Below, piece after piece: positions 42,686-63,387 of a stretch of DNA of 64,000 nucleotides; positions within the stretch are counted from its first letter, which is position 1; each line of letters begins with the position of its first letter. A program made the position numbers and the translations under genes. The stretch is from Candidatus Cloacimonadales bacterium. GTDB lineage: Bacteria; Cloacimonadota; Cloacimonadia; Cloacimonadales; JAIOQZ01. The DNA is taken from positions 2,176,001 to 2,240,000 of the forward strand of contig CAXXTU010000002.1 of assembly GCA_963662655.2 (NCBI GenBank), given 5' to 3'. The notes under the pieces were generated by a model, which was not told the origin of the DNA, did no database searches, and saw nothing but the letters and a program-made list of their open reading frames with translations.

Positions 42686-42868
42686 GTCGCGCGCCCAAGC
42701 CGCGCGGCGGGACGGCGTTGGAAGCCTTACGGCTTCCTGCCTCCCTGTCCTTTGCAAACATTTGGTTTGCAAAGGACAGGGAGGCGTTTGCTTAGCAAAC
42801 ACGCCGTCCCGCCGCGCTCGCTGGCGAGCGCGCAAAGAGCCCCGCGAGGATACCTCGCGGGGCTCGAC
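42686..42868 (+). repeat. Structured four-way-junction intergenic element, copy A
   Basis: Perfect 17-bp closing stem (42702-42718 / 42801-42817) enclosing three hairpins, with two more hairpins 3'. Termini GTCG...CGAC flanked by AG/AG. Confidence 0.8.
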
Positions 42869-42881
42869 AGACCGGTAACGG

Positions 42882-45800
42882 TTATTGGGTGGATTTGCGT
42901 AAGGAGCGGACAGCTTCTGTGCTGGCCGTGACGCGGTAATAACGATTTCCTGAAGGAAGCAGGCAATCCCATGATGTTGCGGCGGTGATTGCTTCCAGGG
43001 TCCATTGATCGCCTTGTGCAGTTGGATTCGAAATGGAATAGACTTTGTAGGATGTCGCCCCCGCGACGGAATCCCAGCTCAGGCTGACGTTCCCGCTTTG
43101 TATCGATATCCGCAGGTTTTTCGGTGCGCTCAGGATGCCGGTTGGTAACTGGAATTCGTGCGGATTCACCGGATCACCGATGATCTGATTGCTAACAATG
43201 CTCAGGGTGTCGTCCAGGTCGCAGAATTCACCCGTTTGCTCGTTCCAGGCCTTGAAAGTTACAGTATCGAAGTACTGGTTTGAGTACACCGTGAGGAAAT
43301 ATAGGTAATTTCCCTGTACCTGAATTGGAGAAGCGATTCCCCGGCATTCCTCTCCCACGAAAGCACCGATGACGATGTCCGGGTCGTTCAGAAGCACTTC
43401 ATCTAGCCAAAGGTTTCCTGTGATGTTCGCCGAATACTCGTAATCGAGCGGGTCGAGTTCCCAGCCCGGGATATCCGGTATCGCCGCGATGGCGCGTTGC
43501 GATGTCGCCTGACTGGTCAGTCCGCGCGTCAGGTTGTAGTCAGGGTAGTGGAACGAACCGGAATTCTGCGTGTTAAGCATGTAACCTTCTCCGGGATTCA
43601 TGAACAGCAGTGAACCGACCCAGCCGTAGCCTTCGATGAATTGAGCAAAGCCTTTCTGGCTCTTGATCAGATCGCCGGTCACCGGATTATCGATGTCGTC
43701 GAGCGCTTCGGTGACGCTTACGCTAACGTGCGGGATAAATCCAATCCAGTTCCATCCGCTTCCGTACGTGATACTCGCGGTATATGGGTCTTCCAACAAA
43801 CCGGTAAGCAGAAGCTCATCGTCTGTCGTGAGCTTGATCTTCACCATCTCGGTTGTCGATATCTCAGCCAGAGATCCAACCCATCCGACCCCGTCCACGT
43901 ACTGCGCGTATTCGGTCTGGTTCTTGATTAAATCGCCGGCAACCGGATTCAGGCTCGCGAGCAGCGAATCGACAGACATGGATGTCTGGTTATCCAGATT
44001 CGTGGAGAGCCAGGTCCAGCCCTGGTTGCAGGAGATTGAACGAACCAGATCCGGTTCTGCATGAACAACGGTTGGAGCAACCGGCGTCCCGTAAACCGCT
44101 CCTTCGAGGAACACAAAAGACTCCGCGATTCCATAATGCTCCTTGCATTCGGAGGCGTCCCACACACGGAAGATGATCTCCTCGCCGTACTCGATATCGC
44201 TCTGAACGGTGAGGAAGAAAGCATAGGTGTTCTCGAGGTACGGAACAAGCTCCGTCTGCGCGTAACCGTGGCAGACCAGATTCCCTTGCGCGTCTTCGAT
44301 AAACGCGCCGATAACATCGTTGAGATCGTTCGAGACGACGCCTTCGATAGACATTTGCCCGGTGATCGACATCGAATAATCGTAGCCCCCGATCATCTGC
44401 ATCGACCACGCGGGAGGGTCGGCCAGCACCCCGATCTCGATTACCAGCGGTTCCGATCCCAGTCCGGGGATATTGGCGTAAATCGTATCGCGATAGGTGC
44501 CGAAACCAAGTTGCTCGCTGATGGTGAAGGTCAAAACCTCCGAATCCAGCGGCAACAACGATCCGGACATGGGATTGACGGTAAGCCACACCGGGATGCT
44601 CTCGATGGCGAATGACGAAAGTTGTCCGCCACTGTTGATCAACTGGTTGGTCAGAAGCATCTCCTCTCCCAACGGCTTGATGATCTCCATCTTCGTTGTT
44701 TCCCAGTATACCGGGTTGGCGTTTACGAAGAATTCCCACTCCACCGGCGCTTCGAGCGCGTTGCCGTACAGGTCGTTAACATTCGAAACCGTCACCTCAA
44801 GCGTCTGGTTCTCAATGAAGTGGTTCGCGCTGAGGATCGTAACGACAATCTTGTTCTCGAAACAGCCTACGCCGTATACCACATCGCCGATTCCTCCGAT
44901 AATATCGACCGATACATTCTCGATCGTGACGCTCAAAGGATCGATCAACTCGTCGAAAAAGATGGAAATCTCATCTCCCCTTTGCAGGATTCCGTCGGCA
45001 GGTTCAGGGAGCCCAAGAACCTCCGGACTGTGCTGGTCGATTACGCCGGGAACCGGGGCTGTGTAATACACTCCCAGCAAGCTGTCCACCGCCGCGGCAC
45101 GAATCTCGTACGCATCGTCGCTGAGTTGGTCCACGTACCACGGATAGCGGATGTAATGCGGGGCGGATTCCAGCTCCTCGCGCAGGATTTCGAATCCCGG
45201 ATTCCATATCGTCTCTTCCAGGCGTTTGTACTGGAGCTTGAGCGAATAGAACGAAGGTTTGTCCGTATCGTATTCGCTCAGCAGGACAAACAAGCTGTCT
45301 CCGGCGGCCTGATTGATGATCCAGTTCTCGTGAGGCGACTCAATCGCAACACGGCTGTACGGCGCTTCCCAGGAAACGTCGAACGAGCGCTCGAACTCGA
45401 AGAAGTGGTCGTCTGGGCCATCGTTGCCCCGGTCGCCTTCGCTGTAGAATAGGAGGGTGAGATCATTGTAAACATACTCGGTAGGCCCCTGGCCGACCGT
45501 CATGACCGCCTGGACAGCGCTGTTCCCAAGAACGTCGAACGCCATCGCATCCTCGACCGGCACACCGTTGATCCTGATTTCCGCGCCGTGGGGATTCGTC
45601 TCATTCATCACCGAGAGGTAGTATCGGCGATCCTCGCCCGTCTGGCTCGTGTTGCCCAATGTAAGGACGAATGCGGCCTCTTCTCCTTCAAGAAGGCCGG
45701 TCTCGGTATACCTGTTTGCCGACATGGTCACGCCCTCGCGCGGTTGCGTGTTGGGCTCCCACGGGCAGGATGAAGCGCCCGAAACCAGTTCGAACACCGG

Positions 45801-48800
45801 CGTACCATAGACCGGGTCCACCAGTACATCCACGGTGAAATAGTCAGCGAGCTCGTTCAGATCCGAGGTTTCGTCGTCGTCCGCGAGGGTGAATGACGTC
45901 GTTGTGGTCGTTGTTGTTTCGGAGCTGCTGGATTTGCCTATCGTTACAGCCGTACTGAACTGATAACCCACTTCGCCACCGATTCCGTCTACCGTTCCGC
46001 CAATTTCCAGGCCGAACTCGCCGCTTACCGTGCTGGTGAATTCTATCGTCGCTCCTTCCGTGGATTCGCACTCTTCTTCGTAGGTGTATCCCGCTCCCGC
46101 GTTGAACGAGAGGTTCTCGGGATGATTCGGATTCGGAAGGGCGTTCGCCTTGTTCGTCTCGTTCATATCGAGGAAGCTCTGCCACAAATCGGCGCTCTCC
46201 GCATCTCCGATGGTGATGAGGTTGGGGATAACCGTATTGCGTATCTGATTGTCCGTATATACGTAGACGGTCGCGAATCCGTTGGGGGAGACCATCACGC
46301 TGGTCTCGACATCCACGCTTTGGGTCGTATCATTGTAGCTGATTTCGTTCGTCACGCCCCATATCAGGTTGAGCGCACCGCCGACGAAGAGGTCGGATCC
46401 GTCACCGATAACCTGATCTTCTTCCGATGTTGCATATTCGGTCGAGGTGGTGAACGTGAGCGTCTGTTCCATGCTTTCGGTTTGCTCCGTTCCCACGGTG
46501 ATGCCCATTCCTATGTCCGCCACGATGTCCACTTCGTGCTCCACGCTCATCACGGCGCAACCCGTTTCCCAGGTGAAATCCGGCCCGAGATGAATGTTCA
46601 TGTAGGCGTTGTGCTCCTGACTGGTGCAGACAGCCGCTTCGAAGGAGATGGAGTGACTGCTGCTCTGCGAGAACACGCCCTGGCTGGCGTCTCCGGGAGG
46701 ATCGTGAAGAACCAGGAACGGAATGTCCGGCGATGTTGAGGCGTAGGTAGATTCGAGCGGCTTCACGCCTTCGGTGAGAGCCCAGTCCGTTTGAATGACC
46801 GCGTTGTCGAGGTTGGGATCGTCCACGCGGAATTCGATGCTGTTCTGGTATTGCCGGTTGAATCCGCTGAGCGTGTTGGGCAAGTGCGGTGCGAAACGGT
46901 AAATAACGGATGTTTCACCAGCGAAGTCATGCACGGTTTCGCCCTGCGTTCCGATGTCGTCCTGTACGGTCAGCTCGCAATCCGTGAGCCATGTGACGTG
47001 ATCGGTGAATGAGCCGAAATTGTAGTCTTCAAACGCGCCGATCTCGATCTCGTACCAGATGTTCTGCTGCAACACGTAGAACGGATATTCGGGATACTCC
47101 GCAAACGTGTGTGCTGACAGCGTATCCGGCCATGTGACGCTGATTTCCATGGGAGCTCGCCAAACGTAGGTGAGGGTGTCGGTCACTTCGTCGGGATTCA
47201 GAAGGTCCAGCGCGGCAGTCTTCATGTTCTGGAACTGGTTGTCGATGACCAGGCCGAACGGATCGGAGCCTCTGGGCTCGACGGTTACATTGTAGCTGAG
47301 CGGAGGTACGTTGGTGACCAGATGGGTGCCGTCGAGCCAGCTACCTGTGGTTATCGTGTCACGGTAGCACCCGCAAACCGAATTCAGGTAGATATCAAAT
47401 TCTCCTAACGGCCAGCGGTCGCTTCCGCCTACGACTTCACATCGGAACTGCGTCCGCAGGATGTCCTCGAAATTGATATTGGTGCGCGGATAGGTGACAA
47501 CGCCCAAATCCCAGGTGCGATTCATGGGATGTTCGTTGTAGCTTACCGAGAGTTGGGTATTCTGGCCATGTTCCACTTCCATCGTGTAGTACCCATCTTC
47601 GTCGGTGGTTACGACAGGGATGGTCGTCTCGCCGTTCAGGAGGATCGTGGCTCCATCCACCGCGCAATTCGTTCCCATGAAGATCGCCCTGCCGGTGATG
47701 GGGATCAGCGAGTTATCCGTGAAATCGATGCCGTTCTGCGCGATATTGCTCTCGCTCAGGGTCACGTTGCGCGATTCCGGCTGGAAAAGGTGGCCGGTCT
47801 TGCTGGGGGTAACGGCGAAGGTCGTTACTGCACCGTACGGTATCTGATTAATCTCGTACTCGCCCCACTCGTCCGAGATCGCGCCCAATTGGATATCCGG
47901 ATCGGCAAGCGACCAGTCTGGATTGGCGATTGCGCCGTTGTGGGCGTTGCTGGTGCCGTCGTAGGCGACGCTTCCGGTTCCCTCGTTGAGCGGCCAGTAA
48001 CCTTCAAGTCCCTGCGAATCCCAGGCGACGACGATATTCATGGCTGTCATGATATCGTCCTGCGTACGCGCCGTGCTCCAAACGCGGATGTCGTCGATGT
48101 ATCCCGCGTATCCGGCGCCCGAGACGATGTTCCCGCTCAGCGGGGCGTTCATCAGGAAGGTGCTGTTGGAAGCAACTTCGATACCGTCGATGTAGAGGTA
48201 TGTCGAGGTATTGGCATAGTCGCTGACCATCGCGATATGATGCCAGCCGTTGTCGGAGACGTCGACCGAATCGACAACCTCGGTTATCGTGTGGACTCCA
48301 TCGGTATAGGATAGCGCGCCTCCGCCAATGCTGAACCCGTGGTTCCCCTGGGAGATGACGGGAGTGTTGGCAAGCGGCGTGCGCAGCCAGAGCTCGAAGG
48401 TGCAGTCGTAGGCGTTGTCGCACAGCGGATCCTCGATTTCGAATGAAGAATTTTCGTCGAGTTCCAAGCAGAATCCGTTCGATGGATTGATGGATACTTT
48501 GACGCCGGCAACCGGATTGTTGTTGCTGGTCGTAATCGTTCCGGTGATGACGCCGTTGGGTTTCAGATAGCCGGAATCGCAGTTGGAATCGCCTTCCTCG
48601 TTTCCGTAATATGACTGGACATAGTAGTTGTAGACCTGGCCGGGAACGGCGGTGTAATCCGAATAGGCGTGAGTCTGGCCTTCGAGGGTCACGATGCTGA
48701 TATCGTTCCTGAAAACGCGGAAGCCGGTGGGGACCATATCGTAATCGGGATTGAAGTCCCATAAGAGTTGAACGTATCCCGGATACTCGTTGGCTCCGTC

Positions 48801-51800
48801 CGAGGCGGCCAGATGCCCGGGAGCGAGGTAACCCTGGTGTTCGTACGCGCCCATGTCGACGCGGTCGAATGACGACTCGTCATGCGCGTAGATGCGCGGA
48901 TTGCCGAGAATATCGTTTGCCGGAAGGGCGAGTCCCGTTGTGTCCTCCGTCGCAACGTTGATACAGAACGACCATGCCTCGAGGTCGTAGGGATCGTCGC
49001 CGGATTCCTTGAAATCGGGATCGACGTCGATGTTACCGTCTCCGGCATAACCGCCTTCGATGTCCGACCACGTGATTTCCGTGAGGGTACCGTTCACAGG
49101 ATAGACCGGATCGTTTCCGTTGCCCCAGACGACGCAGTTGGTGATAACGGGCTGGGGATTATGGGTGGAGAAGTTGAGCGCGCCGGAGCCAAGATTCGAG
49201 TTGCCGGCGATCGTGCAGTTTATCAGGCTCACCTCCGACTCGTTGCTGCAGATCGCCCCACCGTCGTCCGGGCAGTAGTTTTCGGCAATGAGGCATCCGG
49301 TCATGTGAAGGTTTGTGTTGTCCAGGTAGATCGCGCCGCCGTCGTCGTAGCTGCTACCATACAAAAGCTTGCAATTGACGAACGTCAAATCCTCGTAGTC
49401 TTCCGCATGGATAATGCCGCCGTCGTTGTGAGAAACATAGTTTCCGGTCAGAAAGTCGGGATAGCTTATGTAGCTTTGCTGTCGGGAGTATTCGATGGTA
49501 CAGTATTCGAAGTGGGAAGATGAAGGGATATCGTCCATGACATCCCGGAAGATGAGGCCACACCACGTTTCGTATTCGGAAGTACGGGTGAATGTTATGG
49601 GCTCGTTGGCGGTTCCGTCCGCGATCAGGTTGCCATAAACGATGAATTCAGAATTGATTGACATGTCGATGGTTACGCCCGGATCGATCGTCACCGTAAA
49701 GCCGGGATAGATGTAGAATCTCCCTTGGAGCGTCTGATCTTCTTCGATTACGGTTCCATCAGGGATGTTGTTGTATCCGAATACCTCGTAAGCTCCGATG
49801 TCGATGCGGTCAAGGGCGTCGTCCAGGCTGCCGACAGCGACTTCGCTATCCATAAAGCGTCCGAAACCGTCGAGTCCTTCCAGCGCTACCCCACTCATGG
49901 AAGTATTGGGATCGCCAGCGTTGATACATGGTGAATTGGAACCCAGTTTCCACGGGAGGTCGCCCGTCTCGCGGAAATTCGGCTGTAAATCAAAGCAGTG
50001 AAGGTAGCTGCCGCCGACCTGCCCCTGATCCTGATACGAGAAGCCTGCCATTCCGCCTTCGATATCGCAGTAAGTGAAATTGATCGCGCTGTATTCCTGA
50101 AAGCTCATCTGATTGCCGTCGGAAGCGGTGTTTCCCCATATGATACAGTTCTTTATGTATCCGTAGACGCTGTAGTAGTACAAACCTCCACCGTGCTCCA
50201 TAGCTGTGTTGCCGGCGATGGTACAGTTGAGGAGATTGACGTCGCAGAGTGTCCAGAGCGCGCCACCCTCCCTGGCGGTGTTATCGACAAACAGGCAGTT
50301 CGTGAACCAGTTTGCGGAGGTGGACCCGCTTTGCGAGACGGCGCCTCCCTTGTTTTGGCATTCGTTGTTCTTGAAGATGCAATTGATGAAGTCGGTATCG
50401 GAGTCGTAAAGGTTGACCGCTCCACCGTCGGCATCGGCGTAGTTGTTCTCGAACACACAGTTTTCTATTACCGGCGTGCCGTGTCCGATGTATATGGCTC
50501 CGCCTTTACCATTGGTTGCTGGCGCGCGGTTGTTCCTGAAAGCACAGTCCTTAACGAGGACTTTATCGACATTGTAGAAAAGGATTCCTCCTCCTTGTAT
50601 ATCGAGTCCACTTCCTCCGGTTTTCCCATTTTCGATAATGCAGTGAATGACTTTGCTGCTGTCATTTGTCGTTGGGGTATTGTAGAAACGTATCGCTCCC
50701 CATCCTGTCGAGGCATCAGCCGTGAAACGAATCGAATCCTGGTGAGAACCGATGGCAAGTAAGCGTCCGTCGATATCGAGCTTATATCGTCCCAGAAATC
50801 TGACGGTCACCCCCGGTTCGATCGTCAGCGTGGCACCGCTTTCAACTGTGATATCGGCGGCGATGTAGATCGTTTCGTCCGACCACACGGTGTCCGAAGC
50901 GATCGATCCGCCCTGTACCTCGTAAGCTGGGATGCCGCTTCCGACCCAATCGGTGTCGTCCATGTTCTGCAGGAATCCCGTATTGCCGTTAGCGATGTCG
51001 TTGAGCTCGGCGCTGGAACCTTCATTGAACTTCCAGCATGCGACAAGGCCGTCTTCGTCGCCCTGAAGGCTGCCATACATTTCCATGCCGATCTCGCTTG
51101 TGGAGAGTGCGCGACTGTAGATATGAAGCTCGTCGATGCAGCCCTCCATGTTGTTGGTAAGTCCCGATCGGTAGATTCCGCCTATCGTCGAGCGGTCGAA
51201 GTTTATCGCTTGCCTGGTGTAACTGAAGTCTGTAGGATCTTCCGTGCCGTCAATATAGAGGTGGGCGTCGCCGTTGTTGTCCGTGAAACAAACGTGATGC
51301 CATGTATCGTCGAACACCACGCCAGCGGATTGGGCTGTATTGATAACGGAGCCCGTCGCGGTGCGAATGTATATCCTGAATGTTCCATCGTGCCCCTGGC
51401 CGAAGCAGAAGAGCGGGTCGTTAACGCCCGTCGTGGATTCGGAGTAGATGCGATCATCGTAGACGGGGGGAGACTTCACCCATGCGCTGATGGTCAACTG
51501 GCTTCCGTTTCCGTAGATCGGCAATCCGCAGTTCTGTTCGACAACAACATAGTCGTCGATTCCGTCGAAATCCAGGGTGGTTCCGGCCAGGACGCCGGTA
51601 GCGGGGATCGTGGAGGCGTGACGCGTGTCTTCACCCATGCCAAACATGTCTCCGTCGCAGGATCCGGCACTATCGTAAACGTATAGCTGGAAGGTCTCGT
51701 CAAGATTCCAGAGCGCAAGGAGCCCGGACTCGGATCCAGTGAGTGATTGAAAACGATTGGCCTTGATCTCTTCCTGCGTTCGAACATCGTTCCACAGGCG

Positions 51801-52292
51801 CACTTCATCGATGAAGCCGTCCATGGTCTCGCTGTAGCCGCTGATCTCGTAATCGCCATTGAACGAATACAGCCCTCCGACAGGCGCAGTTCCTTCACCG
51901 ATCAGGTTACCGTTCAAATAGAGCTTCAAGGTTGTGCCGTCGTAGGATGCGGCAACGTGCTGCCAGGAATCAACCGGCATAACCTGCGGGACTATGATGC
52001 TTTCGAGAAGACCGTCTGATTGCTTGATGATAAATTCCAGGCTGTTATTGTTTTGACAGCGGAGAATAACCGTTTGGGCCTTGAGCGCAACATATCGCTG
52101 GTTCGAGGTGACGTCGCCATTGTGTTTGACCCAGCATTCGAGAGTGAACTCGCTCATGCTCGATGGTATTCCGGAGCCGAGAACGAAGTCGTCAACGCCG
52201 TCGAATTCCAGACAGTTTCCCGGGAAATCCGCATAGAGCAGCGCTCCCGCAACGATGAAAAGGATAAGAAACAATACGTTTGTGCCTTTCAT
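42882..52292 (-). CDS. Giant (3136 aa) secreted/surface protein: LamG x3, right-handed beta-helix repeats, Ig/FN3-like domains, FN3-like C-terminal domain
   Basis: Signal peptide; 'LEFDGVDD...WQHVA..G.IDEVR.W' LamG units; GGA/N.A beta-helix repeats; 'SPCINAG..DIGAYE'; 'LHDPPG' block; GWTW/GWNW repeats; C-terminal 'APKNLRI..VSLSWDSV.GATSYKVY..YYRVTA'. Confidence 0.9.
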   Translation of the reverse strand: MKGTNVLFLILFIVAGALLYADFPGNCLEFDGVDDFVLGSGIPSSMSEFTLECWVKHNGDVTSNQRYVALKAQTVILRCQNNNSLEFIIKQSDGLLESIIVPQVMPVDSWQHVAASYDGTTLKLYLNGNLIGEGTAPVGGLYSFNGDYEISGYSETMDGFIDEVRLWNDVRTQEEIKANRFQSLTGSESGLLALWNLDETFQLYVYDSAGSCDGDMFGMGEDTRHASTIPATGVLAGTTLDFDGIDDYVVVEQNCGLPIYGNGSQLTISAWVKSPPVYDDRIYSESTTGVNDPLFCFGQGHDGTFRIYIRTATGSVINTAQSAGVVFDDTWHHVCFTDNNGDAHLYIDGTEDPTDFSYTRQAINFDRSTIGGIYRSGLTNNMEGCIDELHIYSRALSTSEIGMEMYGSLQGDEDGLVACWKFNEGSSAELNDIANGNTGFLQNMDDTDWVGSGIPAYEVQGGSIASDTVWSDETIYIAADITVESGATLTIEPGVTVRFLGRYKLDIDGRLLAIGSHQDSIRFTADASTGWGAIRFYNTPTTNDSSKVIHCIIENGKTGGSGLDIQGGGILFYNVDKVLVKDCAFRNNRAPATNGKGGAIYIGHGTPVIENCVFENNYADADGGAVNLYDSDTDFINCIFKNNECQNKGGAVSQSGSTSANWFTNCLFVDNTAREGGALWTLCDVNLLNCTIAGNTAMEHGGGLYYYSVYGYIKNCIIWGNTASDGNQMSFQEYSAINFTYCDIEGGMAGFSYQDQGQVGGSYLHCFDLQPNFRETGDLPWKLGSNSPCINAGDPNTSMSGVALEGLDGFGRFMDSEVAVGSLDDALDRIDIGAYEVFGYNNIPDGTVIEEDQTLQGRFYIYPGFTVTIDPGVTIDMSINSEFIVYGNLIADGTANEPITFTRTSEYETWCGLIFRDVMDDIPSSSHFEYCTIEYSRQQSYISYPDFLTGNYVSHNDGGIIHAEDYEDLTFVNCKLLYGSSYDDGGAIYLDNTNLHMTGCLIAENYCPDDGGAICSNESEVSLINCTIAGNSNLGSGALNFSTHNPQPVITNCVVWGNGNDPVYPVNGTLTEITWSDIEGGYAGDGNIDVDPDFKESGDDPYDLEAWSFCINVATEDTTGLALPANDILGNPRIYAHDESSFDRVDMGAYEHQGYLAPGHLAASDGANEYPGYVQLLWDFNPDYDMVPTGFRVFRNDISIVTLEGQTHAYSDYTAVPGQVYNYYVQSYYGNEEGDSNCDSGYLKPNGVITGTITTSNNNPVAGVKVSINPSNGFCLELDENSSFEIEDPLCDNAYDCTFELWLRTPLANTPVISQGNHGFSIGGGALSYTDGVHTITEVVDSVDVSDNGWHHIAMVSDYANTSTYLYIDGIEVASNSTFLMNAPLSGNIVSGAGYAGYIDDIRVWSTARTQDDIMTAMNIVVAWDSQGLEGYWPLNEGTGSVAYDGTSNAHNGAIANPDWSLADPDIQLGAISDEWGEYEINQIPYGAVTTFAVTPSKTGHLFQPESRNVTLSESNIAQNGIDFTDNSLIPITGRAIFMGTNCAVDGATILLNGETTIPVVTTDEDGYYTMEVEHGQNTQLSVSYNEHPMNRTWDLGVVTYPRTNINFEDILRTQFRCEVVGGSDRWPLGEFDIYLNSVCGCYRDTITTGSWLDGTHLVTNVPPLSYNVTVEPRGSDPFGLVIDNQFQNMKTAALDLLNPDEVTDTLTYVWRAPMEISVTWPDTLSAHTFAEYPEYPFYVLQQNIWYEIEIGAFEDYNFGSFTDHVTWLTDCELTVQDDIGTQGETVHDFAGETSVIYRFAPHLPNTLSGFNRQYQNSIEFRVDDPNLDNAVIQTDWALTEGVKPLESTYASTSPDIPFLVLHDPPGDASQGVFSQSSSHSISFEAAVCTSQEHNAYMNIHLGPDFTWETGCAVMSVEHEVDIVADIGMGITVGTEQTESMEQTLTFTTSTEYATSEEDQVIGDGSDLFVGGALNLIWGVTNEISYNDTTQSVDVETSVMVSPNGFATVYVYTDNQIRNTVIPNLITIGDAESADLWQSFLDMNETNKANALPNPNHPENLSFNAGAGYTYEEECESTEGATIEFTSTVSGEFGLEIGGTVDGIGGEVGYQFSTAVTIGKSSSSETTTTTTTSFTLADDDETSDLNELADYFTVDVLVDPVYGTPVFELVSGASSCPWEPNTQPREGVTMSANRYTETGLLEGEEAAFVLTLGNTSQTGEDRRYYLSVMNETNPHGAEIRINGVPVEDAMAFDVLGNSAVQAVMTVGQGPTEYVYNDLTLLFYSEGDRGNDGPDDHFFEFERSFDVSWEAPYSRVAIESPHENWIINQAAGDSLFVLLSEYDTDKPSFYSLKLQYKRLEETIWNPGFEILREELESAPHYIRYPWYVDQLSDDAYEIRAAAVDSLLGVYYTAPVPGVIDQHSPEVLGLPEPADGILQRGDEISIFFDELIDPLSVTIENVSVDIIGGIGDVVYGVGCFENKIVVTILSANHFIENQTLEVTVSNVNDLYGNALEAPVEWEFFVNANPVYWETTKMEIIKPLGEEMLLTNQLINSGGQLSSFAIESIPVWLTVNPMSGSLLPLDSEVLTFTISEQLGFGTYRDTIYANIPGLGSEPLVIEIGVLADPPAWSMQMIGGYDYSMSITGQMSIEGVVSNDLNDVIGAFIEDAQGNLVCHGYAQTELVPYLENTYAFFLTVQSDIEYGEEIIFRVWDASECKEHYGIAESFVFLEGAVYGTPVAPTVVHAEPDLVRSISCNQGWTWLSTNLDNQTSMSVDSLLASLNPVAGDLIKNQTEYAQYVDGVGWVGSLAEISTTEMVKIKLTTDDELLLTGLLEDPYTASITYGSGWNWIGFIPHVSVSVTEALDDIDNPVTGDLIKSQKGFAQFIEGYGWVGSLLFMNPGEGYMLNTQNSGSFHYPDYNLTRGLTSQATSQRAIAAIPDIPGWELDPLDYEYSANITGNLWLDEVLLNDPDIVIGAFVGEECRGIASPIQVQGNYLYFLTVYSNQYFDTVTFKAWNEQTGEFCDLDDTLSIVSNQIIGDPVNPHEFQLPTGILSAPKNLRISIQSGNVSLSWDSVAGATSYKVYSISNPTAQGDQWTLEAITAATSWDCLLPSGNRYYRVTASTEAVRSLRKSTQ

Positions 52293-52310
52293 GGATTACT
52301 CCTTTGTATG

Positions 52311-55332: not shown

Positions 55333-56835
55333 ATGAAGACGTTACTGGTATTTTTCTTACTCGTATTGGCTTTGCAATTGGCAGCAGAAATGGAATTCAC
55401 CCAGCAGGGGACGATTCCTGTGTCGAACGGAACTTTTGCTTATGCGGAACTGAAAAACTATCACGGCGATGAGCGAATCCTCGTTTATTCGCAAACGACA
55501 ACGAGTATCTACGTCAAAGTATGTGATCCGGAAGGCAACTTAATCGAATCGTTTACTTTGACAACGACGGACAATACCGATGAACGGAAGATGAGTTATT
55601 TTGAATACGATGACACTGGTTACATGGTTGTGAATTATACGATTAGGGGTCAACGATCATATAATGGAGATAATTGGACAAGATCAGAAAGGGCATACAG
55701 TGACATATACAATCTGGAAACGGGTTCTCTTGTTGATCATCAAAACGTTGCCAGTAAAACGAGTTCTTATTCTCAGTATGAAGATCCTTATGAACCATGG
55801 TACAATTATGATTCAACAATAACCTGGACGCTAAACCCACAGCAACCTGTCACTCAGTACTTCGGTTCCGGATATTGCAAACTGAATGTACCATTCAGGT
55901 TTAGAAGACATTCATATTACACAGCCTATGATCAGATCAATGAGGAGGATGAAGTTCTCTATCCATTATACGAAGAAGTATTTGATGTGACATCTGTTAA
56001 TTACCAGTATTTTGAAGATACCGGGATGTACATATTGAGTGGGCAGGATGAGCAGCTACCTAAGATTTCTGCAGGATACAATAGGACTTTTTACGATTAC
56101 AACGATGCATGGCCAATTCGGCAATGGGTTGTTTGGGGTTTTATCTATGATGATTCACTGATAATGTCAGAACTGTTAGCGGCTGAAGCAGATTTTTCCT
56201 TTTTCGGAGTCTATGAAACCAGTAGATATGTTTTACTGTCTGATTACTACCCTGAGAGTAGTCAGTCGTTTACATTGTTAACCATTACTGACTACGAAGA
56301 CTTTGAATTCGGTGAACGAGATCTTTCAGGCAACATTATCTGGTCAAGCAGTGAGACGACTTTGGATATGTATGACGACCTTATAGCAAAACAATATCAC
56401 TCCTGTTGCTTCATCAATTGTGAAGGGAATCCTTGTACTCTCTATTACAGGGATGAGGGCAGCTCTTGGGAAGCCAGGAACAGGCTTGACGGTAGTATTG
56501 TAGATCACGGGACTTTTAGCTTTCCCACGCCCGTAAATTTAGGGAGGTTGCTGGACGGAACGATCGTGCTATTATCGGAAGGCGACTCCGATGTGGTGGT
56601 GTATCACGCAAATACAGGAATCATTGAGATTGAGCTGAACATAGAGGCCGGTTCTGGATTTGTGAATCTGGATTGGAATGACATCGAGGGCGCCACAGGT
56701 TACAAGGTCTACTCGGCGGATACGCCCGACGGCGTGTTCACGTTTCTTGCCGATGCGAGCATGAGCCAGCATTACATCACGACTTTACCGGATACGCAGA
56801 AGTATTACAAAGTGACGGCGGTATTTGGGGAATAG
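55333..56835 (+). CDS. Secreted Tyr/acidic-rich hypothetical protein with an FN3-like C-terminal domain
   Basis: GGAGG RBS, signal peptide and C-terminal 'VNLDWNDIEGATGYKVYS...YYKVTA'. Confidence 0.8.
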   Translation: MKTLLVFFLLVLALQLAAEMEFTQQGTIPVSNGTFAYAELKNYHGDERILVYSQTTTSIYVKVCDPEGNLIESFTLTTTDNTDERKMSYFEYDDTGYMVVNYTIRGQRSYNGDNWTRSERAYSDIYNLETGSLVDHQNVASKTSSYSQYEDPYEPWYNYDSTITWTLNPQQPVTQYFGSGYCKLNVPFRFRRHSYYTAYDQINEEDEVLYPLYEEVFDVTSVNYQYFEDTGMYILSGQDEQLPKISAGYNRTFYDYNDAWPIRQWVVWGFIYDDSLIMSELLAAEADFSFFGVYETSRYVLLSDYYPESSQSFTLLTITDYEDFEFGERDLSGNIIWSSSETTLDMYDDLIAKQYHSCCFINCEGNPCTLYYRDEGSSWEARNRLDGSIVDHGTFSFPTPVNLGRLLDGTIVLLSEGDSDVVVYHANTGIIEIELNIEAGSGFVNLDWNDIEGATGYKVYSADTPDGVFTFLADASMSQHYITTLPDTQKYYKVTAVFGE

Positions 56836-56925
56836 GAGTCGGAATCATCTTGTTCAGAGCCGGTTCGGAGTAAATATTCATTGACACGGCATCGTGTCTG
56901 CTCACGCTCTTGGTGAGGAGATCCC

Positions 56926-58980
56926 ATGGAACTAACAACCAGAAAATTTCTGCAAGAGCGCGCAGCCATGATCCTCACCGCAGCGCTGGTGGTGCCCATT
57001 TCCATATTTCTTGTAACCGGCTACTTACTGCTCAGTACCATTGCAAAACAGAAGGATGTAACTACCCTGAACAGCCTGGCGCAAAACGTGCGGTTTCTCG
57101 AAAGCAAGCGCACCAGCCAGTCGATCCAGATGCAGGCGGCCATCACCGATACGTTGTATGCTTTCTTCGACGAGAAGCCCGACAGCCGGATTATTTCCTT
57201 TCTGACGCGCGAGAATCCCGACCTGGATTCGTATGTTCTATTCACCGAAGATCATGTCGTTGGCTCAGGGATTCAACTCTCGAAGGAGCAGCGCGAGAAG
57301 CTGATCGAGATTTCCGCAGAGAAGAAGGAAGGCTCGGGCTATTACCTCGGAAGCGGGAAGCGGTACATCATGACTTATTCGGTTATCAACGCCGAATCCA
57401 CGAATCCGACGATCCTTGTTCTGTACTGGAACTACACGCTTCCGGAGAACCTGTACATCAATACACTCAAGGATTTCCACACCATGCGCATCGACTGGGA
57501 TCGCATCAAAACAGCTCCTCAGGACAAGTATGAAACCGAGCGCCGATTGATCGACAACATCAACGCAACTTCGGAAGGTATATTCATCGAGGAGTTGCCC
57601 GGGAATCTACTGTCGGCCCATTTCTTCCTGCACGATGTATTCGGTAAGCCGATTGCGATTGTAACCATGCAGACCGAGCGCTACTTTGTCTTGCAGATGA
57701 AGCGCCTCTTCTGGATCGGAGGGCTCTCGCTTTCGTTCCTCTCGATCGTGTCGGCATTGTTGCTTGCACGCAAGGCCGCGTCCTATCTGATGAATCCGGT
57801 GGAGAAGCTCAGCTATCAGATGAATCAAATCGCGAGCAATCCCGTGCATTCGGAAGAGATCAATCAGGGCGAGTTTTCGCAGTTGGATTTGCTCGTTTCG
57901 TCGTTCAACGGAATTCTTCGATCCTTCAAGGAATATTACGGTTCGGTGCAAAAATACGAGAGCATCGTCACGAACATCAAAGAGGGGATTTTCTGGAGCG
58001 ACGACAAGGGGTACATGGTTATCTCCAACAAAGCCTTCGACGATATCTTCAAGAATCAGGGGCCGATCGGCAATCTCAGCGAGATATGGGGGGGGGGCAA
58101 GGATGATTTCAAGCAAAGGATAGCCGGATTCGAGGACGGGAACGAGATTGAAATCGATGGCCGGTACTATCTGCTTTTCGTTAACGAGTACAGGCAGAAC
58201 GGGAAAGCGAATTACCTCGGTCTCATTTCCGAGATAACCCAGCAAAAGGAAGCCGAGATCGAGCGACAGCGCCTCGAGATGCAGCTTCAGACCACGAAGA
58301 AGCTTGCCGAGATCGGTCTGTTGATTGAAGGGATTTCTCACAACCTCAATTCCCCGCTTCACAACATGCTCGCCTATGTTCACTTCCTTCGGGGTGAGTT
58401 CGGCGACCACAAGGACCTCATCAAACTACAGGAAAACGGTCAACGAATGGCCGAGATCATCAAATCGCTGATGAACAGGATGTCCGAGGCGGTGGTTTTT
58501 TCCGCGAGGCCGATAGACATCAACGAGCTGGTCGGGCTGGAGTTGGCGTTCTTCGAGCATAACTTGTATTTCAAGAACAACGTTCGCAAGGTCATTCGTC
58601 TTCAGGAAAATCTTCCTGATGTGATGGCCGTTTACAGCGATATCAGTCAAGCACTGTCCAATCTGATTTCCAATGCGGTGGATGCCGTGAAGGGCACGCG
58701 GGACAAGACGATTACAATCGAGACCTTTCTGCGCGACGAGAATCTGGTTATCTCCGTGGAAGACACAGGTGTGGGGATTCCGGAAGAAAGGCTGGGAAGC
58801 ATTTTCGAGCCGTTCCAGTCGTCAAAGGAAACCGCCAACGGGATTGGTCGGGGAATAGGCCTGGCGATTTCGAGGCAGTTGTTGGAAAGCTACGACGCCA
58901 AGGTCAATGTGGAAAGCGTTGTCAACCAGGGGAGCCGATTCGAAATCGTCTTCCCGAAGGAGCGCTTTGTCGACGAGTAG
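56926..58980 (+). CDS. Membrane sensor histidine kinase (periplasmic sensor, HAMP, PAS-like, HisKA, HATPase)
   Basis: Two TMs, H-box 'GISHNLNSPL', N-box 'NLISNAVDA', 'DTGVGIP' and 'GRGIGL'. Confidence 0.92.
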   Translation: MELTTRKFLQERAAMILTAALVVPISIFLVTGYLLLSTIAKQKDVTTLNSLAQNVRFLESKRTSQSIQMQAAITDTLYAFFDEKPDSRIISFLTRENPDLDSYVLFTEDHVVGSGIQLSKEQREKLIEISAEKKEGSGYYLGSGKRYIMTYSVINAESTNPTILVLYWNYTLPENLYINTLKDFHTMRIDWDRIKTAPQDKYETERRLIDNINATSEGIFIEELPGNLLSAHFFLHDVFGKPIAIVTMQTERYFVLQMKRLFWIGGLSLSFLSIVSALLLARKAASYLMNPVEKLSYQMNQIASNPVHSEEINQGEFSQLDLLVSSFNGILRSFKEYYGSVQKYESIVTNIKEGIFWSDDKGYMVISNKAFDDIFKNQGPIGNLSEIWGGGKDDFKQRIAGFEDGNEIEIDGRYYLLFVNEYRQNGKANYLGLISEITQQKEAEIERQRLEMQLQTTKKLAEIGLLIEGISHNLNSPLHNMLAYVHFLRGEFGDHKDLIKLQENGQRMAEIIKSLMNRMSEAVVFSARPIDINELVGLELAFFEHNLYFKNNVRKVIRLQENLPDVMAVYSDISQALSNLISNAVDAVKGTRDKTITIETFLRDENLVISVEDTGVGIPEERLGSIFEPFQSSKETANGIGRGIGLAISRQLLESYDAKVNVESVVNQGSRFEIVFPKERFVDE

Positions 58981-59154
58981 GTGACTCTGAGATTCAGCAC
59001 CGACTCAGCGCCGGGGGGGCGGCGTCTGCGCGGAGCGCAGTGAAACCATGGGGCGTCAGAAGGATTACTTCTGACGCCCCATGGTTTTCGGGAGCCGAAT
59101 GCTTCCGCATCGGTTCCCACGCCGCCCCCCCGGCGCGGGGTTAGCTCGCTCGAC
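58969..59154 (-). repeat. Structured four-way-junction intergenic element, copy B (reverse orientation)
   Basis: Perfect 18-bp closing stem (59008-59025 / 59119-59136) enclosing three hairpins. Termini GTCGA...TCGAC flanked by TT/TT. Overlaps the kinase stop codon. Confidence 0.8.
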
Positions 59155-59176
59155 TTCATTCAATCGGATTCGTGGA

Positions 59177-60289
59177 TCAGAAAGCCTCTTTCACGTTGAA
59201 GTACAAGCCGGTCCTCATCTCGCTTTGATCCGAATCGTCGTAACGATCGCTTGCATTGTTGTAAGAGATGTCCAGGCGAATATTCAGATTCTGCTTCGTG
59301 TCCCACGCATAGCGGAAACCAACGCCTCCTGCGACTTTCGGATCGCCCGATGAGAATTTGTCGAACCTGGAAGCGACGTCCCCCACACCGCCAAAAACGG
59401 CAGCACCAAAACGATAGAATAGAGGGAAACGATATTCGGCTTGCAGCATCAAGGCGTTGTGATCGCGGTAGCGTCCTTCGTAGAACCCACGCATGGTGTC
59501 GTGATCGCAGAGCTCGGCCAATTCTTGAAATGGGGCTGAGCCATCCGTGAAAAGGTATACGTACTGGAAGGCAAGCACATGCTTCTTGAAGAGCGTGTAG
59601 TAGGCGCGAGCGTCGAGAGAAGATTTCGAGAACGTGAAATCGCTGCCCCAGCCTTCGTGGTACTGCATCGATTGCGCTTGAATCAGGTAACCGGATGTCG
59701 GGAAGATGACTGCGTTGCGTACATCGTACGCAGCTTTCAAGCCGATGCCGTGAACCGTAAACGATTCACTGCCGGGCAGGAAGCCGCTGTCGAGAGCTCC
59801 TCCGTTCTCAACTCTGGTAATGTATGATCGGAGCACCCGGTAGTTCGGGCCAATCGAGAGGCTGCCTGAAATGTCGCGCATGACGCCCAGTTCAAACTCG
59901 AGACTGTTGTCCGTGTAGTCTTCCTCTTCCATGATGGTGGTGTCGTTTCCAATTCCGCAATATTGATTAGGGTATTTTCGCAGGTCTATTTCCAGAATGC
60001 CTTGATAGTCGGGGGAAAGGTAATGCTCGGCAGAGATGTTTATTCTGATTTGTTTCTCGGTTGTGTACAGCCCGACCGCGCTATACATGTTCATCGGATT
60101 GGCAAGTCCGGGCGTATCCATGTCATAAGCCTCCCGATAGCGCAAAACATACGCGCCAAGTCCCCAGCCGGTTTCAGGAGAGTGCATGATTACCGGCAGG
60201 ATGGACAGGCCAGAGGTTTCTTCTTCATCCACGGAGAATAAAAAAGTTGCAACCAGAAACAGATAAACAATAAGACAGATTTTTTTCAC
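59177..60289 (-). CDS. Omp85 (BamA/TamA) family beta-barrel without POTRA domains
   Basis: 'MRGFYEGRYRD' (VRGF-like loop 6), 'AEYRFPL', 'GVGFRY' and terminal 'EAF'. Confidence 0.85.
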   Translation of the reverse strand: MKKICLIVYLFLVATFLFSVDEEETSGLSILPVIMHSPETGWGLGAYVLRYREAYDMDTPGLANPMNMYSAVGLYTTEKQIRINISAEHYLSPDYQGILEIDLRKYPNQYCGIGNDTTIMEEEDYTDNSLEFELGVMRDISGSLSIGPNYRVLRSYITRVENGGALDSGFLPGSESFTVHGIGLKAAYDVRNAVIFPTSGYLIQAQSMQYHEGWGSDFTFSKSSLDARAYYTLFKKHVLAFQYVYLFTDGSAPFQELAELCDHDTMRGFYEGRYRDHNALMLQAEYRFPLFYRFGAAVFGGVGDVASRFDKFSSGDPKVAGGVGFRYAWDTKQNLNIRLDISYNNASDRYDDSDQSEMRTGLYFNVKEAF

Positions 60290-60301
60290 GAGCTTTCTCC
60301 A

Positions 60302-61492
60302 CTAAAAAGCTTCCATGAGTGCAACATAAATACCGTAATAGGTGTCGTCCTCACTGGAAATACCTGGAATTCTGCGAATGTTATTGATGGCGAAATCGAT
60401 CCGGAGGTTGAGGTTCTGCGTTTTTTCGAGCCGATAGCGCAGTCCCATTCCTGCCGCCAGTTTCACTCTTTGCAGGTTTAGCTCTTCCAGATCATGGTAC
60501 ACGTCGCCGATCGCTCCGAATAGGTCTCCTCCGAAGGAACGGTAGATTGGGAAGCGATACTCGAGCTGAGCCGAAAGGTAGTTGCGATCGCGGAAACGCG
60601 TTTGATGGTACCCACGCAGCATCTCGATGCCGCCGAGTTTGTATAGCTGAAGAAACGGAACCTCGCCGAAGCTGTTCTTCGAAATGAGTTGCAGGGCGAG
60701 AATGTGTTTTCTTGCAAGTGTGATGAATTTGCGCATGTCCAGACTTGACTGCGCGAAATTGTAATCGCTGCCGAGCGATTTATGGTGCGACGTGAAATCC
60801 CATGAGACCAGTAAGCCCTTCGATGCGAAGTAAATGTTGTCGCGGGTGTCCCAGTCGGTAGAAATCCCCAGGCCGACAATCTTATAAGTGTCCGATCCTT
60901 CAATGTTCCCATTTCTCAGCATGCCGTCATCGTCTCGCTCCTTGATGTCGGATGAAAAGAAATGGATGCTGGGTCCAAGCGACCAATCGCTGAGTAGTTT
61001 TCGCATTATGGAGAGGTTTGCGCCGTATTGCAGGGACAGGAAGCTTTCTTCGTCTTCGGAACGGGTATCGTTTCCAATACCGTAAAATGATTCCGGGAAA
61101 TGCTTACCCTGGATTAGAAATTTCATGCGGGTTTTATCGAAGATATCACCGTCGAACTGGGCCATGACAATCGCCTGCTCTTCTTGTGTACCGAAGCCCG
61201 TAAAGGTAAAATGGTCGGTTAATTGATGGTTCCGTTCACGGAAGTAAACAACGGAAGCTCCCAGCCCGGTCCCGGTTTCCGGTGCGTAGAAAGCGATCGG
61301 CACGAACACGAATTTGCGATCGTTTTTGCCAGAATCTTCCTTCGGCTTATTCGGTTCGAGATTCAGGATTTCACGTATTCTGCGCACGGATTCCCGGTGA
61401 TCCCGTTCGTCTTCCTCCTTTTCATCCGCGAAAAGGGAGAAAGCCAAAACGAGGAGCAGAACCAGGAAAAACAGTTTATCGTAGATTTTCAT
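60302..61492 (-). CDS. Omp85 (BamA/TamA) family beta-barrel without POTRA domains, paralog
   Basis: 'YAPETG', 'LGG..LRGY..RFRD', 'EYRFPI', 'GLRY' and terminal 'EAF'. Confidence 0.85.
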   Translation of the reverse strand: MKIYDKLFFLVLLLVLAFSLFADEKEEDERDHRESVRRIREILNLEPNKPKEDSGKNDRKFVFVPIAFYAPETGTGLGASVVYFRERNHQLTDHFTFTGFGTQEEQAIVMAQFDGDIFDKTRMKFLIQGKHFPESFYGIGNDTRSEDEESFLSLQYGANLSIMRKLLSDWSLGPSIHFFSSDIKERDDDGMLRNGNIEGSDTYKIVGLGISTDWDTRDNIYFASKGLLVSWDFTSHHKSLGSDYNFAQSSLDMRKFITLARKHILALQLISKNSFGEVPFLQLYKLGGIEMLRGYHQTRFRDRNYLSAQLEYRFPIYRSFGGDLFGAIGDVYHDLEELNLQRVKLAAGMGLRYRLEKTQNLNLRIDFAINNIRRIPGISSEDDTYYGIYVALMEAF

Positions 61493-61563
61493 CGGCTGAA
61501 GTTAAAAATGTCCCGTCATTGCATGTCAAGCGAAAAGGCATGGTTGCTTCACATCTTTCCGCG

Positions 61564-62514
61564 TCACGAATACGTGTCCTCCGGTTCGTCATCTTCATCG
61601 ACTCCGAACATTTTCCGGAAGGAGCCGCCTAGATTCTTGAATGCTCCCCATGTCTTTTTTCCGCTCATGACGATCAGGTCCCGGTAGATGCGTTGCAAGA
61701 CATCCGAGAGGATGTTACGGGTGGTGTCCGCAATTACATGAACGGCGGGGAACAGTTCGTTTTCCTTTTTGATGTAGAGCATGGTACAATATCGTTCCGT
61801 GATGATCGAGATTCGGGTGAGGAGCGCTGCGTTCACCATGCCGTCGGCTAGGGAGCTTAGCATGATGTTCGCTCCCGGGAGCTTTTTCATGCCGTCGGTG
61901 GCGTATTTGGAGAAGAGCTCGGTAATGAAGTATTCTACGCCTTCCGATCCTGCGATCATGGTGGAGAGCATGACCAGCCTGCCAATGGATAGCAAATCGC
62001 GATTGGTAACTCTGCCCCGGTAGAGCTTGAAGAGCTCTCGTACCATGTTTATACTGCCCGATAGCATGAGAAACGCGTCGATGAATCCATTTTGGGAAAG
62101 ACTGGTGCTATAGAATAGCGCTGTTACGTACCTTTTCCGAATGCGCGCGCCTTCCTTCTTCAGTTCCTTTACAACGGTATTGTATCCCTTCTCGTCGGCC
62201 GTTATGGAGGAAAAATCGAATGATTGCTCGATAAGGTAATGGTTCCTTCTGAAGCATTGCATCCGTTTTTCGATCAATTCCGGGACCTTGCTCTTATCCT
62301 TGGCCGGAGGCTGATTCGGCTTCAACATGATGATCCGGGTTAAAGGTATTATCACGAAGTACACCGTTAGTCCGGCAAGCAAGACGAGGAAGCCGTACCC
62401 GGCATACGGGTGCAGGAGATAGAGCGATGTGTAGAGTTGCAGGAATTCTTTAATCACGAAGTAGATCAGGAATAGCGACAGGAAAAACAGGATTCGCTGG
62501 ATCGTTTTCATCAT
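61564..62514 (-). CDS. YcjF/DUF697-like membrane protein
   Basis: Two N-terminal TMs and 'TSLSQNG.IDA', 'LY.GR' and 'DG.VNA.L..R' motifs. Confidence 0.7.
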   Translation of the reverse strand: MMKTIQRILFFLSLFLIYFVIKEFLQLYTSLYLLHPYAGYGFLVLLAGLTVYFVIIPLTRIIMLKPNQPPAKDKSKVPELIEKRMQCFRRNHYLIEQSFDFSSITADEKGYNTVVKELKKEGARIRKRYVTALFYSTSLSQNGFIDAFLMLSGSINMVRELFKLYRGRVTNRDLLSIGRLVMLSTMIAGSEGVEYFITELFSKYATDGMKKLPGANIMLSSLADGMVNAALLTRISIITERYCTMLYIKKENELFPAVHVIADTTRNILSDVLQRIYRDLIVMSGKKTWGAFKNLGGSFRKMFGVDEDDEPEDTYS

Positions 62515-62523
62515 TCACCTCGT

Positions 62524-63096
62524 TTATTGTGGGAAATGTGTCTTGGATACCCTGCCGTCCGCACCAAAACTGACATACGCTTTCTGCGAAAAATCCCACT
62601 TGTATATCCACAGGCCTTTATCCGGTACCTCAAAGCGAGAGTCGGGAGGGAATCCCAAGGTTCTGATTACTGCTTCTTTACTCATCCCGGGTAAAACGGA
62701 GCCACGAAGGATGTTCTGTCTCTCGGTGTCGGTGAGATTGCCGGTCAGCTCCTCAAAGGTGTTCGAGGTAAACATTCTATGCAGCAGGTCTTCCGTCTGA
62801 AGATGCTTGTCGCTGTCCCGATCGATAATTACAGTAAACAGCTTACCTCGTACCTCGAAGGAAACCTGCGGATTGCTGGATACGGACAGGTCGTCGATGA
62901 CATCAAGTTTCGTGATCATGGTTCCAGCAGGCAGGAACCGGCCGGATATGAAATTGACCGATTCGATATGGGTCGGATCCGTGTACCATAGATTGTGAGC
63001 CAGATACCAGGTTTTGGTTCTGTCGAGTTCATGGCCCTGCGCAATCAGGACCATGGCACAAATCAGGATCATTTGAGCAATAACGAATTTCTTCAT
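62524..63096 (-). CDS. Exported protein with a C-terminal SmpA/BamE-like domain
   Basis: Signal peptide and 'GMSKEAV..LGFPP....W.Y....VSF..GRV'. Confidence 0.7.
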   Translation of the reverse strand: MKKFVIAQMILICAMVLIAQGHELDRTKTWYLAHNLWYTDPTHIESVNFISGRFLPAGTMITKLDVIDDLSVSSNPQVSFEVRGKLFTVIIDRDSDKHLQTEDLLHRMFTSNTFEELTGNLTDTERQNILRGSVLPGMSKEAVIRTLGFPPDSRFEVPDKGLWIYKWDFSQKAYVSFGADGRVSKTHFPQ

Positions 63097-63165
63097 CTTG
63101 TCGTCCTTATCATTTCATGAATGCAATATTGACCTCCTCTTCAAGCAGGCAAGAAAAAAATAATA

Positions 63166-63387
63166 CGAGTTACCGACCGCGCGGCGGGGCGGCGGAAGAA
63201 GCCCTACGAATCCAGCATCATGCTTGCACAGGTCGGATCAAATCGGAACAACCATGTGCTGGATATTCCGTAGGGCTTCTTGGTATATTTCCCCATGTAA
63301 ACAATACGCTTACATGGGAAATCTACCGTGTGCGAAGCACACCCGCCGCCCCGCCGCGCTGAGCTGGTGCGCATTCTCGAGTCGGAC
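63166..63387 (+). repeat. Structured four-way-junction intergenic element, copy C
   Basis: Perfect 17-bp closing stem (63179-63195 / 63343-63359) enclosing three hairpins. The 3' tail TGAGCTGGTGC..CTCGAGTC resembles the copy B tail. Confidence 0.75.

Follow-up and report, generated by a model that had tools for sequence, protein, structure and literature searches.

The window analysed here, a 64,000-nucleotide stretch of a Candidatus Cloacimonadales bacterium genome (contig CAXXTU010000002.1, positions 2,176,001 to 2,240,000), carries three copies (A, B and C) of a four-way-junction repeat that we designate F1, with a predicted fold in which a GC-rich closing stem encloses exactly three hairpins. 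F1 is an intergenic repeat family restricted to one genus and present in about 75 copies in this genome. Its copies keep their pairing while their sequence varies, carry inverted loops and interiors, exchange modules, are missing from some orthologous sites and are enriched at breakpoints of gene order. We consider it probable that F1 is a non-autonomous DNA element which folds as single-stranded DNA (ssDNA), spreads in trans, is kept perfect by self-copying and is tied to break-and-rejoin events.

F1 is a genus-restricted intergenic repeat family

The genome under study (G000; Cloacimonadota, 3.81 Mb, 98.95% complete) was compared with three congeners (G001, G002 and G003). By using a covariance model built from 17 short copies, we obtained 80 matches at about 75 loci in G000, one locus in each of the congeners and none in 27 other relatives, so the search for further copies which an initial annotation of the window had proposed did uncover a family. 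The cores are 105-190 bp long. The working list contains 78 loci (67 found by search and 11 added by hand, two of the latter partial), and 72 copies were parsed fully by script. A sequence pattern for F1, run against 232 genomes of the phylum, matched 64 times in G000 and once per congener; the remaining 228 genomes gave nothing apart from a single chance match in coding sequence. Viral contigs yielded one chance match, metagenomes none at first and then four chance matches, and plasmid and phage collections, each queried with one F1 copy, no match. Public genome contigs held at least 76 loci, and among the matches listed the fold was present at just two loci, both of congeners. The literature searched, which took in few subscription papers, yielded no account of a junction repeat with three hairpins and none of any repeat in Cloacimonadota.

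The copy in G002 is 91% identical over 120 bp to a G000 copy, with different flanks, and it lies on a 38-kb contig whose copies of a second repeat family, F2 (described below), are likewise unusually close to those of G000. It is possible that this copy arrived by transfer or that the contig was mis-binned.

Pairing is kept while the sequence varies

Among the 72 parsed copies the median closing stem is 15 perfect pairs long, the stem sequence covaries from copy to copy, and at most two bases are unpaired at the junction in 50 of them. The median arm 2 is 19 pairs long, and all four pair types occur at almost every position; 1195 of 1243 arm-2 pairs are Watson-Crick, as counted by a parser that favours pairing. 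The copies fall into three arm size classes, namely short arm 1 with long arm 2 (n = 32), both arms long (n = 31) and long arm 1 with short arm 2 (n = 9), and none has two short arms. Between nearest neighbours among the copies the median identity is 0.76 and the highest 0.90. In a MAFFT alignment of the 17 short copies both partners change in 31 of 46 pairs, and covariation reached 0.340 versus 0.137 for shuffles (0 of 500) and 0.09-0.18 for slid controls, the structure having been drawn from the same 17 sequences as were tested. The initial annotation had proposed a dispersed family that keeps its fold while its stems covary, and this is supported both by the number of genomic copies and by covariation above shuffles. 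Its statement that arm 2 is unrelated in every copy proved false, as there are arm-2 subfamilies up to 91% alike.

Outside the stem a weak tail extends for about 20 nt on the side of arm 3 and for about 8 nt on the opposite side. Flanks and interiors are inherited separately, and the identity of arm 1 shows no correlation with that of arm 2 (rho 0.02); modules are shuffled among F1 copies. Two copies (C2:3617689 and 1165290) are without their 5' part and retain arm 3, the right stem and the tail, and copy C2:100928 has collapsed internally so that the stem alone is left. Some copies, at C2:1165276-1165439 and at the queD site in two congeners, are nested in larger outer inverted repeats, a hint that they inserted into pre-existing hairpins.

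Most of the covariation can arise by self-copying

Of the 68 copies with an arm-3 triloop, 52 have GNA closed by GC...GC. Five of the 16 non-GNA triloops, copy B included, are the exact inversion TNC (p = 0.003), and of the 49 copies that could be classed (23 of the 72 could not), 7 have an interior that is inverted with respect to the flanks. Moreover, the sister copies C1:133588 and C2:1914628 differ by a TTC/GAA arm-1 loop and a two-base compensation in arm 2. Template switching is marked by spacer inversion and arm homogenisation, according to the accessible parts of two accounts (PMC8604942, PMC8794818). The inverted loops and multi-base compensations thus point to self-copying by template switching, and covariation alone is no proof of selection; we infer that most F1 covariation can arise without it. 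However, the ratio of GNA to TNC is 52:5 in arm 3 versus 6:5 in arm 1 (p = 0.007), and this skew, together with the constant three-arm layout, argues for selection on the arm-3 loop and on the layout. The initial annotation had offered selection or a structure-preserving copying mechanism as the cause; copying has gained positive evidence, and selection is clear only for these two features.

Single-stranded DNA is favoured over RNA as the working form

The sequence GCGNAGC folds into a DNA mini-hairpin of extra stability, which occurs at single-strand priming sites and at N4 promoters, and in the version with a four-base loop the RNA form melts at a much lower temperature (PMC13037366, in the text available from that source). 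No GNRA or UNCG loop occurred among 31 short loops of arm 1 and 38 of arm 2. The mispairs comprised 29 G-T and 18 A-C (p = 0.14), i.e., no clear G-T excess. Since the GNA mini-hairpin, the rarity of G-T wobbles and the absence of GNRA and UNCG loops point in one direction, the evidence favours ssDNA rather than RNA as the working form of F1. Rfam gave no match in the window; in 10 copies there were 46 sub-threshold matches, mostly to generic microRNA hairpins, and none at the gathering threshold.

That F1 acts as, or spreads through, structured RNA, either as an RNA gene family or as a retroposed unit like a short interspersed element (SINE), appears very unlikely. The fold is equally stable with RNA parameters, the two 5'-truncated copies keep arm 3, right stem and tail as such a unit might, and the genome has one split reverse transcriptase. 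However, the scarcity of G-T pairs, the DNA-type triloops and the loop inversions speak for DNA, both strands fold alike, the orientation to neighbouring genes is mixed (30/18/17/13) and no Rfam family reaches threshold. The reverse transcriptase scores best on the defence-type families Drt3b and Drt4, below their cut-offs, and lies about 10 kb from the nearest F1 copy; it was rejected as a partner, no link to F1 having been shown. Its gene (C2:981049-982608, locus L144) is split into two open reading frames (ORFs) by one TGA and adjoins a 217-aa ORF that is SatD-like by eye.

F1 copies sit where gene order has broken

We asked whether the genes flanking a copy are neighbours in G001, of which 2.4 of 3.9 Mb were compared; expected values were taken from element-free junctions matched for gap and orientation. 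Under a strict rule 0 of 21 F1 junctions were kept versus 12.9-14.4 expected, the figure for element-free junctions being 822 of 962. Under a lenient rule 2 of 26 were kept versus 17.6 expected (0 of 200,000 simulations), and at both of these G001 has extra DNA at the site. A plain insertion at C2:2900540 stands outside both counts, as do 52-57 further F1 loci, of which a flanking gene has no ortholog in the compared part of G001. The far sides of the same flanking genes were kept in 35 of 43 cases (10 of 16 for gaps of at least 100 bp). At convergent or divergent junctions 1 of 16 with F1 was kept versus 153 of 224, and the elements of G001 itself show the same trend (2/13 versus 255/472). 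All three window junctions are absent from the three congeners, which mostly agree among themselves. As a whole, gene order is heavily shuffled between G000 and G001 (392 blocks, median two genes), and the GC skew is still two-armed.

Of 39 former partners of F1-side genes, 4 have F1 beside them (about 2.7 expected; background about 7%), and reciprocal exchange was seen at none of the nine testable F1 junctions. Thus, simple crossover between copies is not supported as the cause, and each break leaves a copy on one side only.

These results bear on an alternative that we regard as unlikely, in which F1 copies are attC-like, structure-defined recombination sites used by the host. The junction, already folded on ssDNA, would be the substrate of XerCD or of another or a lost recombinase, and operon blocks would be cut and rejoined there. 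The near-complete breakpoint association, the uncorrelated arms, the separate inheritance of flanks and interiors and the tight junction would all suit such a site, and so would the position of one F1 copy 28 bp after xerC and of one F2 copy directly after xerD (C2:1847635-1848712, C2:1153442-1154485). Another F1 copy follows uvrC. These adjacencies were noticed post hoc and may be due to chance. The scarcity of F1 among former neighbours and the lack of reciprocal exchange speak against host sites, and the congeners manage with one copy each. A dif-like site at C2:796601 (-), near the GC-skew turn at about 809 kb, has no resemblance to F1. With attC, as the sections of the literature at hand describe it, F1 shares a kept structure, a variable sequence and an ssDNA recombination logic; however, cores of the RYYYAAC/GTTRRRY type are paired in 1 of 72 copies, there is no cassette array, and the F1 fold is branched rather than linear. 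G000 has six tyrosine recombinase matches; its recombinases of this type are XerC, XerD and apparent prophage genes, with no link to F1 shown. No integron integrase was found among the four that were scanned, all of which scored far below the integron cut-off (two prophage or fragment matches lay outside the scan).

Filled and empty sites suggest mobility

The site between queD and a zinc-ribbon gene carries a copy in G001 and G003, with differing arms, and is empty in G000, while C2:2900540 is filled in G000 and empty in G001; empty sites, which the initial annotation had suggested looking for at orthologous loci, were therefore found. Direct repeats of at least 7 nt between flanks occurred in 9 copies versus 14.2 expected, i.e., without excess, in a test that skipped 8 nt beside the stem core and is weak for duplications of 2-5 bp. 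Short duplications are not visible, given the distance of the congeners and the rearrangement of most junctions. The match of arms to their own flanks was no better than to those of other copies, so guide-target pairing is not supported. Neither capture of genomic spacers nor a pool of empty intergenic target motifs was found. The CRISPR repeat was rejected as a relative of F1, being unlike it in sequence.

The result on direct repeats is pertinent to the possibility, in our estimation quite unlikely, that F1 is an ordinary miniature transposable element with inverted repeats (MITE) whose closing stem of 15-18 bp is the terminal inverted repeat of a now-absent DDE transposase, with internal hairpins kept by template switching alone. 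Perfect terminal stems and intergenic placement are what such an element would have, the collapsed copy C2:100928 retains just the stem, and insertion sequences (IS) show a similar association with breakpoints (0 of 5 junctions kept versus 2.8 expected). Furthermore, Bacillus has in bcr1 a MITE-like repeat that shows compensatory changes, according to part of its published description (PMC3184786). On the other hand, the stem sequence itself covaries, no direct-repeat excess was seen, and the strand polarity of arm 3 would be needless for a double-stranded substrate. Mobile elements present in G000 include ISL3 (13 copies), an IS3-like element (8) and Mu-like prophages, the last two labelled by our own reading; comparison by eye of the ISL3 and IS3-like ends and one Mu-like end with the F1 stem revealed none that is similar. 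The foldback-MITE candidate of the initial annotation thus keeps its terminal inverted repeats (median 15 perfect bp), which covary, and lacks a matching IS end and an excess of direct repeats of at least 7 nt. One Mu-like prophage end lies 16 bp from an F1 stem, inside the tail (C2:502000-511026), and several related prophage copies occur in the genome.

Search for a partner enzyme

We searched for a partner by named families and read neighbouring proteins of less than 420 aa by eye. No Y1_Tnp domain was detected in G000, and the RAYT proteins of relatives gave no tblastn match there at E < 0.01; a weak Y1 match (E 0.38) was discarded, lying on the strand opposite an unrelated ORF. F1, F2 and F3 (a third family, described below) are missing from all 11 Y1 loci of relatives, and the RAYTs of the congeners are flanked by other repeats. 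IS110 was absent from G000, G001 and G003 and present only in G002. TnpB, DUF559, serine recombinases and MobA/MobL relaxases were not found in G000, the last having been searched for because the bases before arm 3 in some copies are reminiscent of a MOBQ nick motif. A scan for HUH motifs gave nothing. A GIY-YIG gene (C2:884761-885479) was rejected as an F1 partner, as it is broken and flanked not by F1 but by F4, a family of CGTC-type palindromes with 49 motif matches genome-wide. This gene is a candidate partner for the CGTC-type repeat class, which is said to lack a transposase. Among the candidates listed by the initial annotation the ssDNA substrate is favoured over the non-coding RNA, but none of the enzyme classes it had named that were searched for was found as a partner.

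Several points weigh against the reading of F1 as a mobile ssDNA element tied to breaks. The named-family searches in G000 found no partner enzyme, and no two copies within 2.5 kb of each other enclose a gene, contrary to the clustering round a transposase or recombinase gene that the initial annotation had thought worth looking for. It is possible that the partner was lost or is unrecognised. Transposition of the IS200/IS605 type, which proceeds through single strands, shows a replication-strand bias, whereas F1 has none (38/75). The two stretches examined, covered by contigs from essentially a single sample, showed neither excision nor a circle nor an empty allele. No pair of copies is more than 90% alike, apart from a duplicate beside an ISL3 copy, hence movement was not recent, and at least two sites are plain insertions with no rearrangement. 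The exact ends of F1 are not definable since the congeners are only about 70-75% identical. The breakpoint test relies on one congener, on 62% of its genome and on our own ORF calls; 167 of 244 gene-order breaks carry no element, F2 is likewise found at breakpoints (11 of 52 junctions kept versus 35.2 expected), and F4 junctions were kept in 9 of 19 cases versus 11.4 expected overall and in 2 of 11 at convergent or divergent junctions. As F2 and F4 lean the same way, the repeats may simply settle at young junctions, rather than cause the break by insertion.

A possible mechanism

In the reading of F1 as an ssDNA element, the folded four-way junction would be recognised in trans by a structure-specific nuclease or recombinase, and the recognised form would be the strand with the GC-GNA-GC mini-hairpin in arm 3. 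Stems would stay perfect mostly through template switching that copies one arm onto the other, while selection would keep the junction and the arm-3 loop. Insertion would usually be coupled to break-and-rejoin, or later provoke it, with one copy staying on one of the two new junctions. The break might be made by an enzyme that cleaves some way off, or by nucleases of the host that attack hairpins and cut the 20-bp arm. TnpA-REP cuts away from its hairpin and recombines single strands (PMC3333891), and SbcCD cuts stems of 8-16 bp (PMC3733652), to go by portions of these papers; either way of cutting could leave a copy on one new junction. A much wider proposal, which we put forward as doubtful, is that F1 represents an undescribed, widespread class of bacterial and archaeal elements, pre-folded single-stranded mimics of the Holliday junction that serve as recombination sites defined by structure, are read via a DNA mini-hairpin and by their insertion, itself the break-and-rejoin, shuffle operon blocks across the chromosome.

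The copies in the window

The features of the window are as follows.

42702..42817, +, core of copy A (F1), 116 bp, covariance-model score 104.5 bits
42702-42718 with 42801-42817, +, closing stem of copy A, 17 bp, perfect
42720-42737, +, arm 1 of copy A
42739-42785, +, arm 2 of copy A
42786-42800, +, arm 3 of copy A
42818..42840, +, weakly conserved 3' tail of copy A
59008..59136, -, core of copy B, 129 bp, 18-bp closing stem, 70.7 bits
63179..63359, +, core of copy C, 181 bp, 17-bp closing stem, long-arm-1 class, arm-3 loop GAA
33942..33970, -, decayed right half of a possible fourth copy, weak match (E 5.4)

Three elements with one architecture are present as first described, with perfect closing stems of 17, 18 and 17 bp. 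The further claims that arm 2 is perfect in copies A and B (21 and 20 bp; imperfect in C) and that arm 3 is a 6-bp stem with a triloop in all three were borne out as well. By contrast, the lengths of 183 and 186 bp, the GTCG...CGAC ends and the extra 3' hairpins are no features of the family, of which the 72 parsed copies keep only the weak tail of about 20 nt; this applies also to the hairpin after the tail of copy A (about 42836-42864). Folding z-scores for A, B and C ranged from -10.6 to -19.1 in comparison to dinucleotide shuffles, on both strands and with RNA and DNA parameters; for copy A the value was -16, and 0 of 200 shuffles were equally good.

Copy A belongs to the class with short arm 1 and long arm 2, and its junction, between psd and a gene for a 3136-aa surface protein, is absent in 3 of 3 congeners. 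The surface protein (window 42882-52292, -) has laminin-G, PMP-repeat and Ig-like domains and several paralogs in the congeners. Copy B, whose arm-3 loop is the inverted form TCC, lies between convergent histidine kinase and Omp85 genes, a junction found in 0 of 3 congeners. Short-read contigs of the source sample span copies A and B with zero differences, thus their junctions are not assembly chimeras. Copy C is part of a 557-bp segmental duplicate, 97.8% identical to its twin (C2:2158699-2159255), which abuts an ISL3 copy and also takes in the start of a TPR-like gene (window 63154-64000; G000:C2:2158699-2160588). Two versions of this duplicate occur at unequal depth (about 2 and about 6) in the sample contigs, which suggests strain heterogeneity or a recent ISL3 rearrangement. 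The neighbouring ISL3, with its 13 genomic copies, was rejected as a partner and is regarded as a bystander. The possible fourth copy is fused to a partial F2 copy (33956-34048, +).

Other structured repeats of this genome

F2 is a second family in which the fold is conserved and the sequence varies, with about 139 loci genome-wide and copies at 29194-29385 (+) and 33956-34048 (+) of the window. It is a long hairpin with interruptions, about 135-190 nt in all, whose internal loop is fixed while its tip varies; it gives about 10 pattern matches per congener, and none was found in other genera of the family. F2 has a strong replication-strand bias (35/134, p = 3e-8), often occurs in inverted pairs and also lies at breakpoints. 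F3, a third structured family with 13 loci in G000 (e.g., C2:59002-59169), has a GGGTGGGTGGG tract and a long inner arm; four copies are present in the compared part of G001, and twice F3 abuts F2 with zero gap.

Comparison with known repeat systems

F1 works like the REPIN and BIME forms of repetitive extragenic palindromic (REP) sequences and resembles bcr1, and it fails the tests of REP tag and partner, of attC core and, for a MITE, of an end shared with an IS. In the parts of the REP literature accessible to us, these repeats are high in copy number, extragenic, lineage-restricted and gene-less (PMC3116915, PMC3333891, PMC3733652), their hairpin pairing is held by compensatory change while the sequence varies, and the ssDNA fold is the proposed substrate, TnpA-REP cutting at a distance and being able to carry flanking DNA. 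Unlike a REPIN, which is a hairpin doublet, F1 has a branched stem with three hairpins, is not clustered and is strongly associated with breakpoints. It also differs from REP in having no conserved GTAG/CGTC tag and no RAYT in G000. Within 40 nt outside the stem GTAG occurred in 12 and CGTC in 22 of 72 copies, at no fixed place, and GTAG was found at the joint of stem and arm 1 in 8 of 72. The initial annotation had not recognised F1 as a named REP, attC, tRNA or riboswitch class, and the Rfam scan and both motif tests, for attC cores and REP tags, bear this out.

The bcr1 repeats of the Bacillus cereus group, in the text of PMC3184786 available, are about 155 bp long, dispersed at non-conserved positions and without a transposase of their own, and a cruciform-like fold is kept through compensatory changes. 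However, the same text gives bcr1 5-bp direct repeats and has it transcribed and interpreted as an RNA fold, whereas in F1 no signal of duplication was seen, the loops are of the DNA type, the three internal arms come in size classes and the copies are much less alike. F1 also fails as a bridge RNA or seekRNA of IS110/IS1111, since the fit of its arms to their own flanks does not exceed that to the flanks of other copies, and G000, G001 and G003 have no IS110. New from G000 are the link to breakpoints and the polarity of the mini-hairpin.

By what means palindromic repeats without genes spread where there is no RAYT is an open question, stated for CGTC repeats in the portion of PMC3733652 at hand. 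F1 provides a tight test substrate for it, with a fixed three-arm junction and one polar DNA mini-hairpin, and a genomic effect that can be measured, as gene order is almost wholly lost at its sites. For RNA discovery it serves as a warning, as the strong covariation observed here probably comes from self-copying of DNA and not from selection on RNA. Should the mechanism be shared by similar repeats of other phyla, these would constitute an unrecognised driver of chromosome shuffling.

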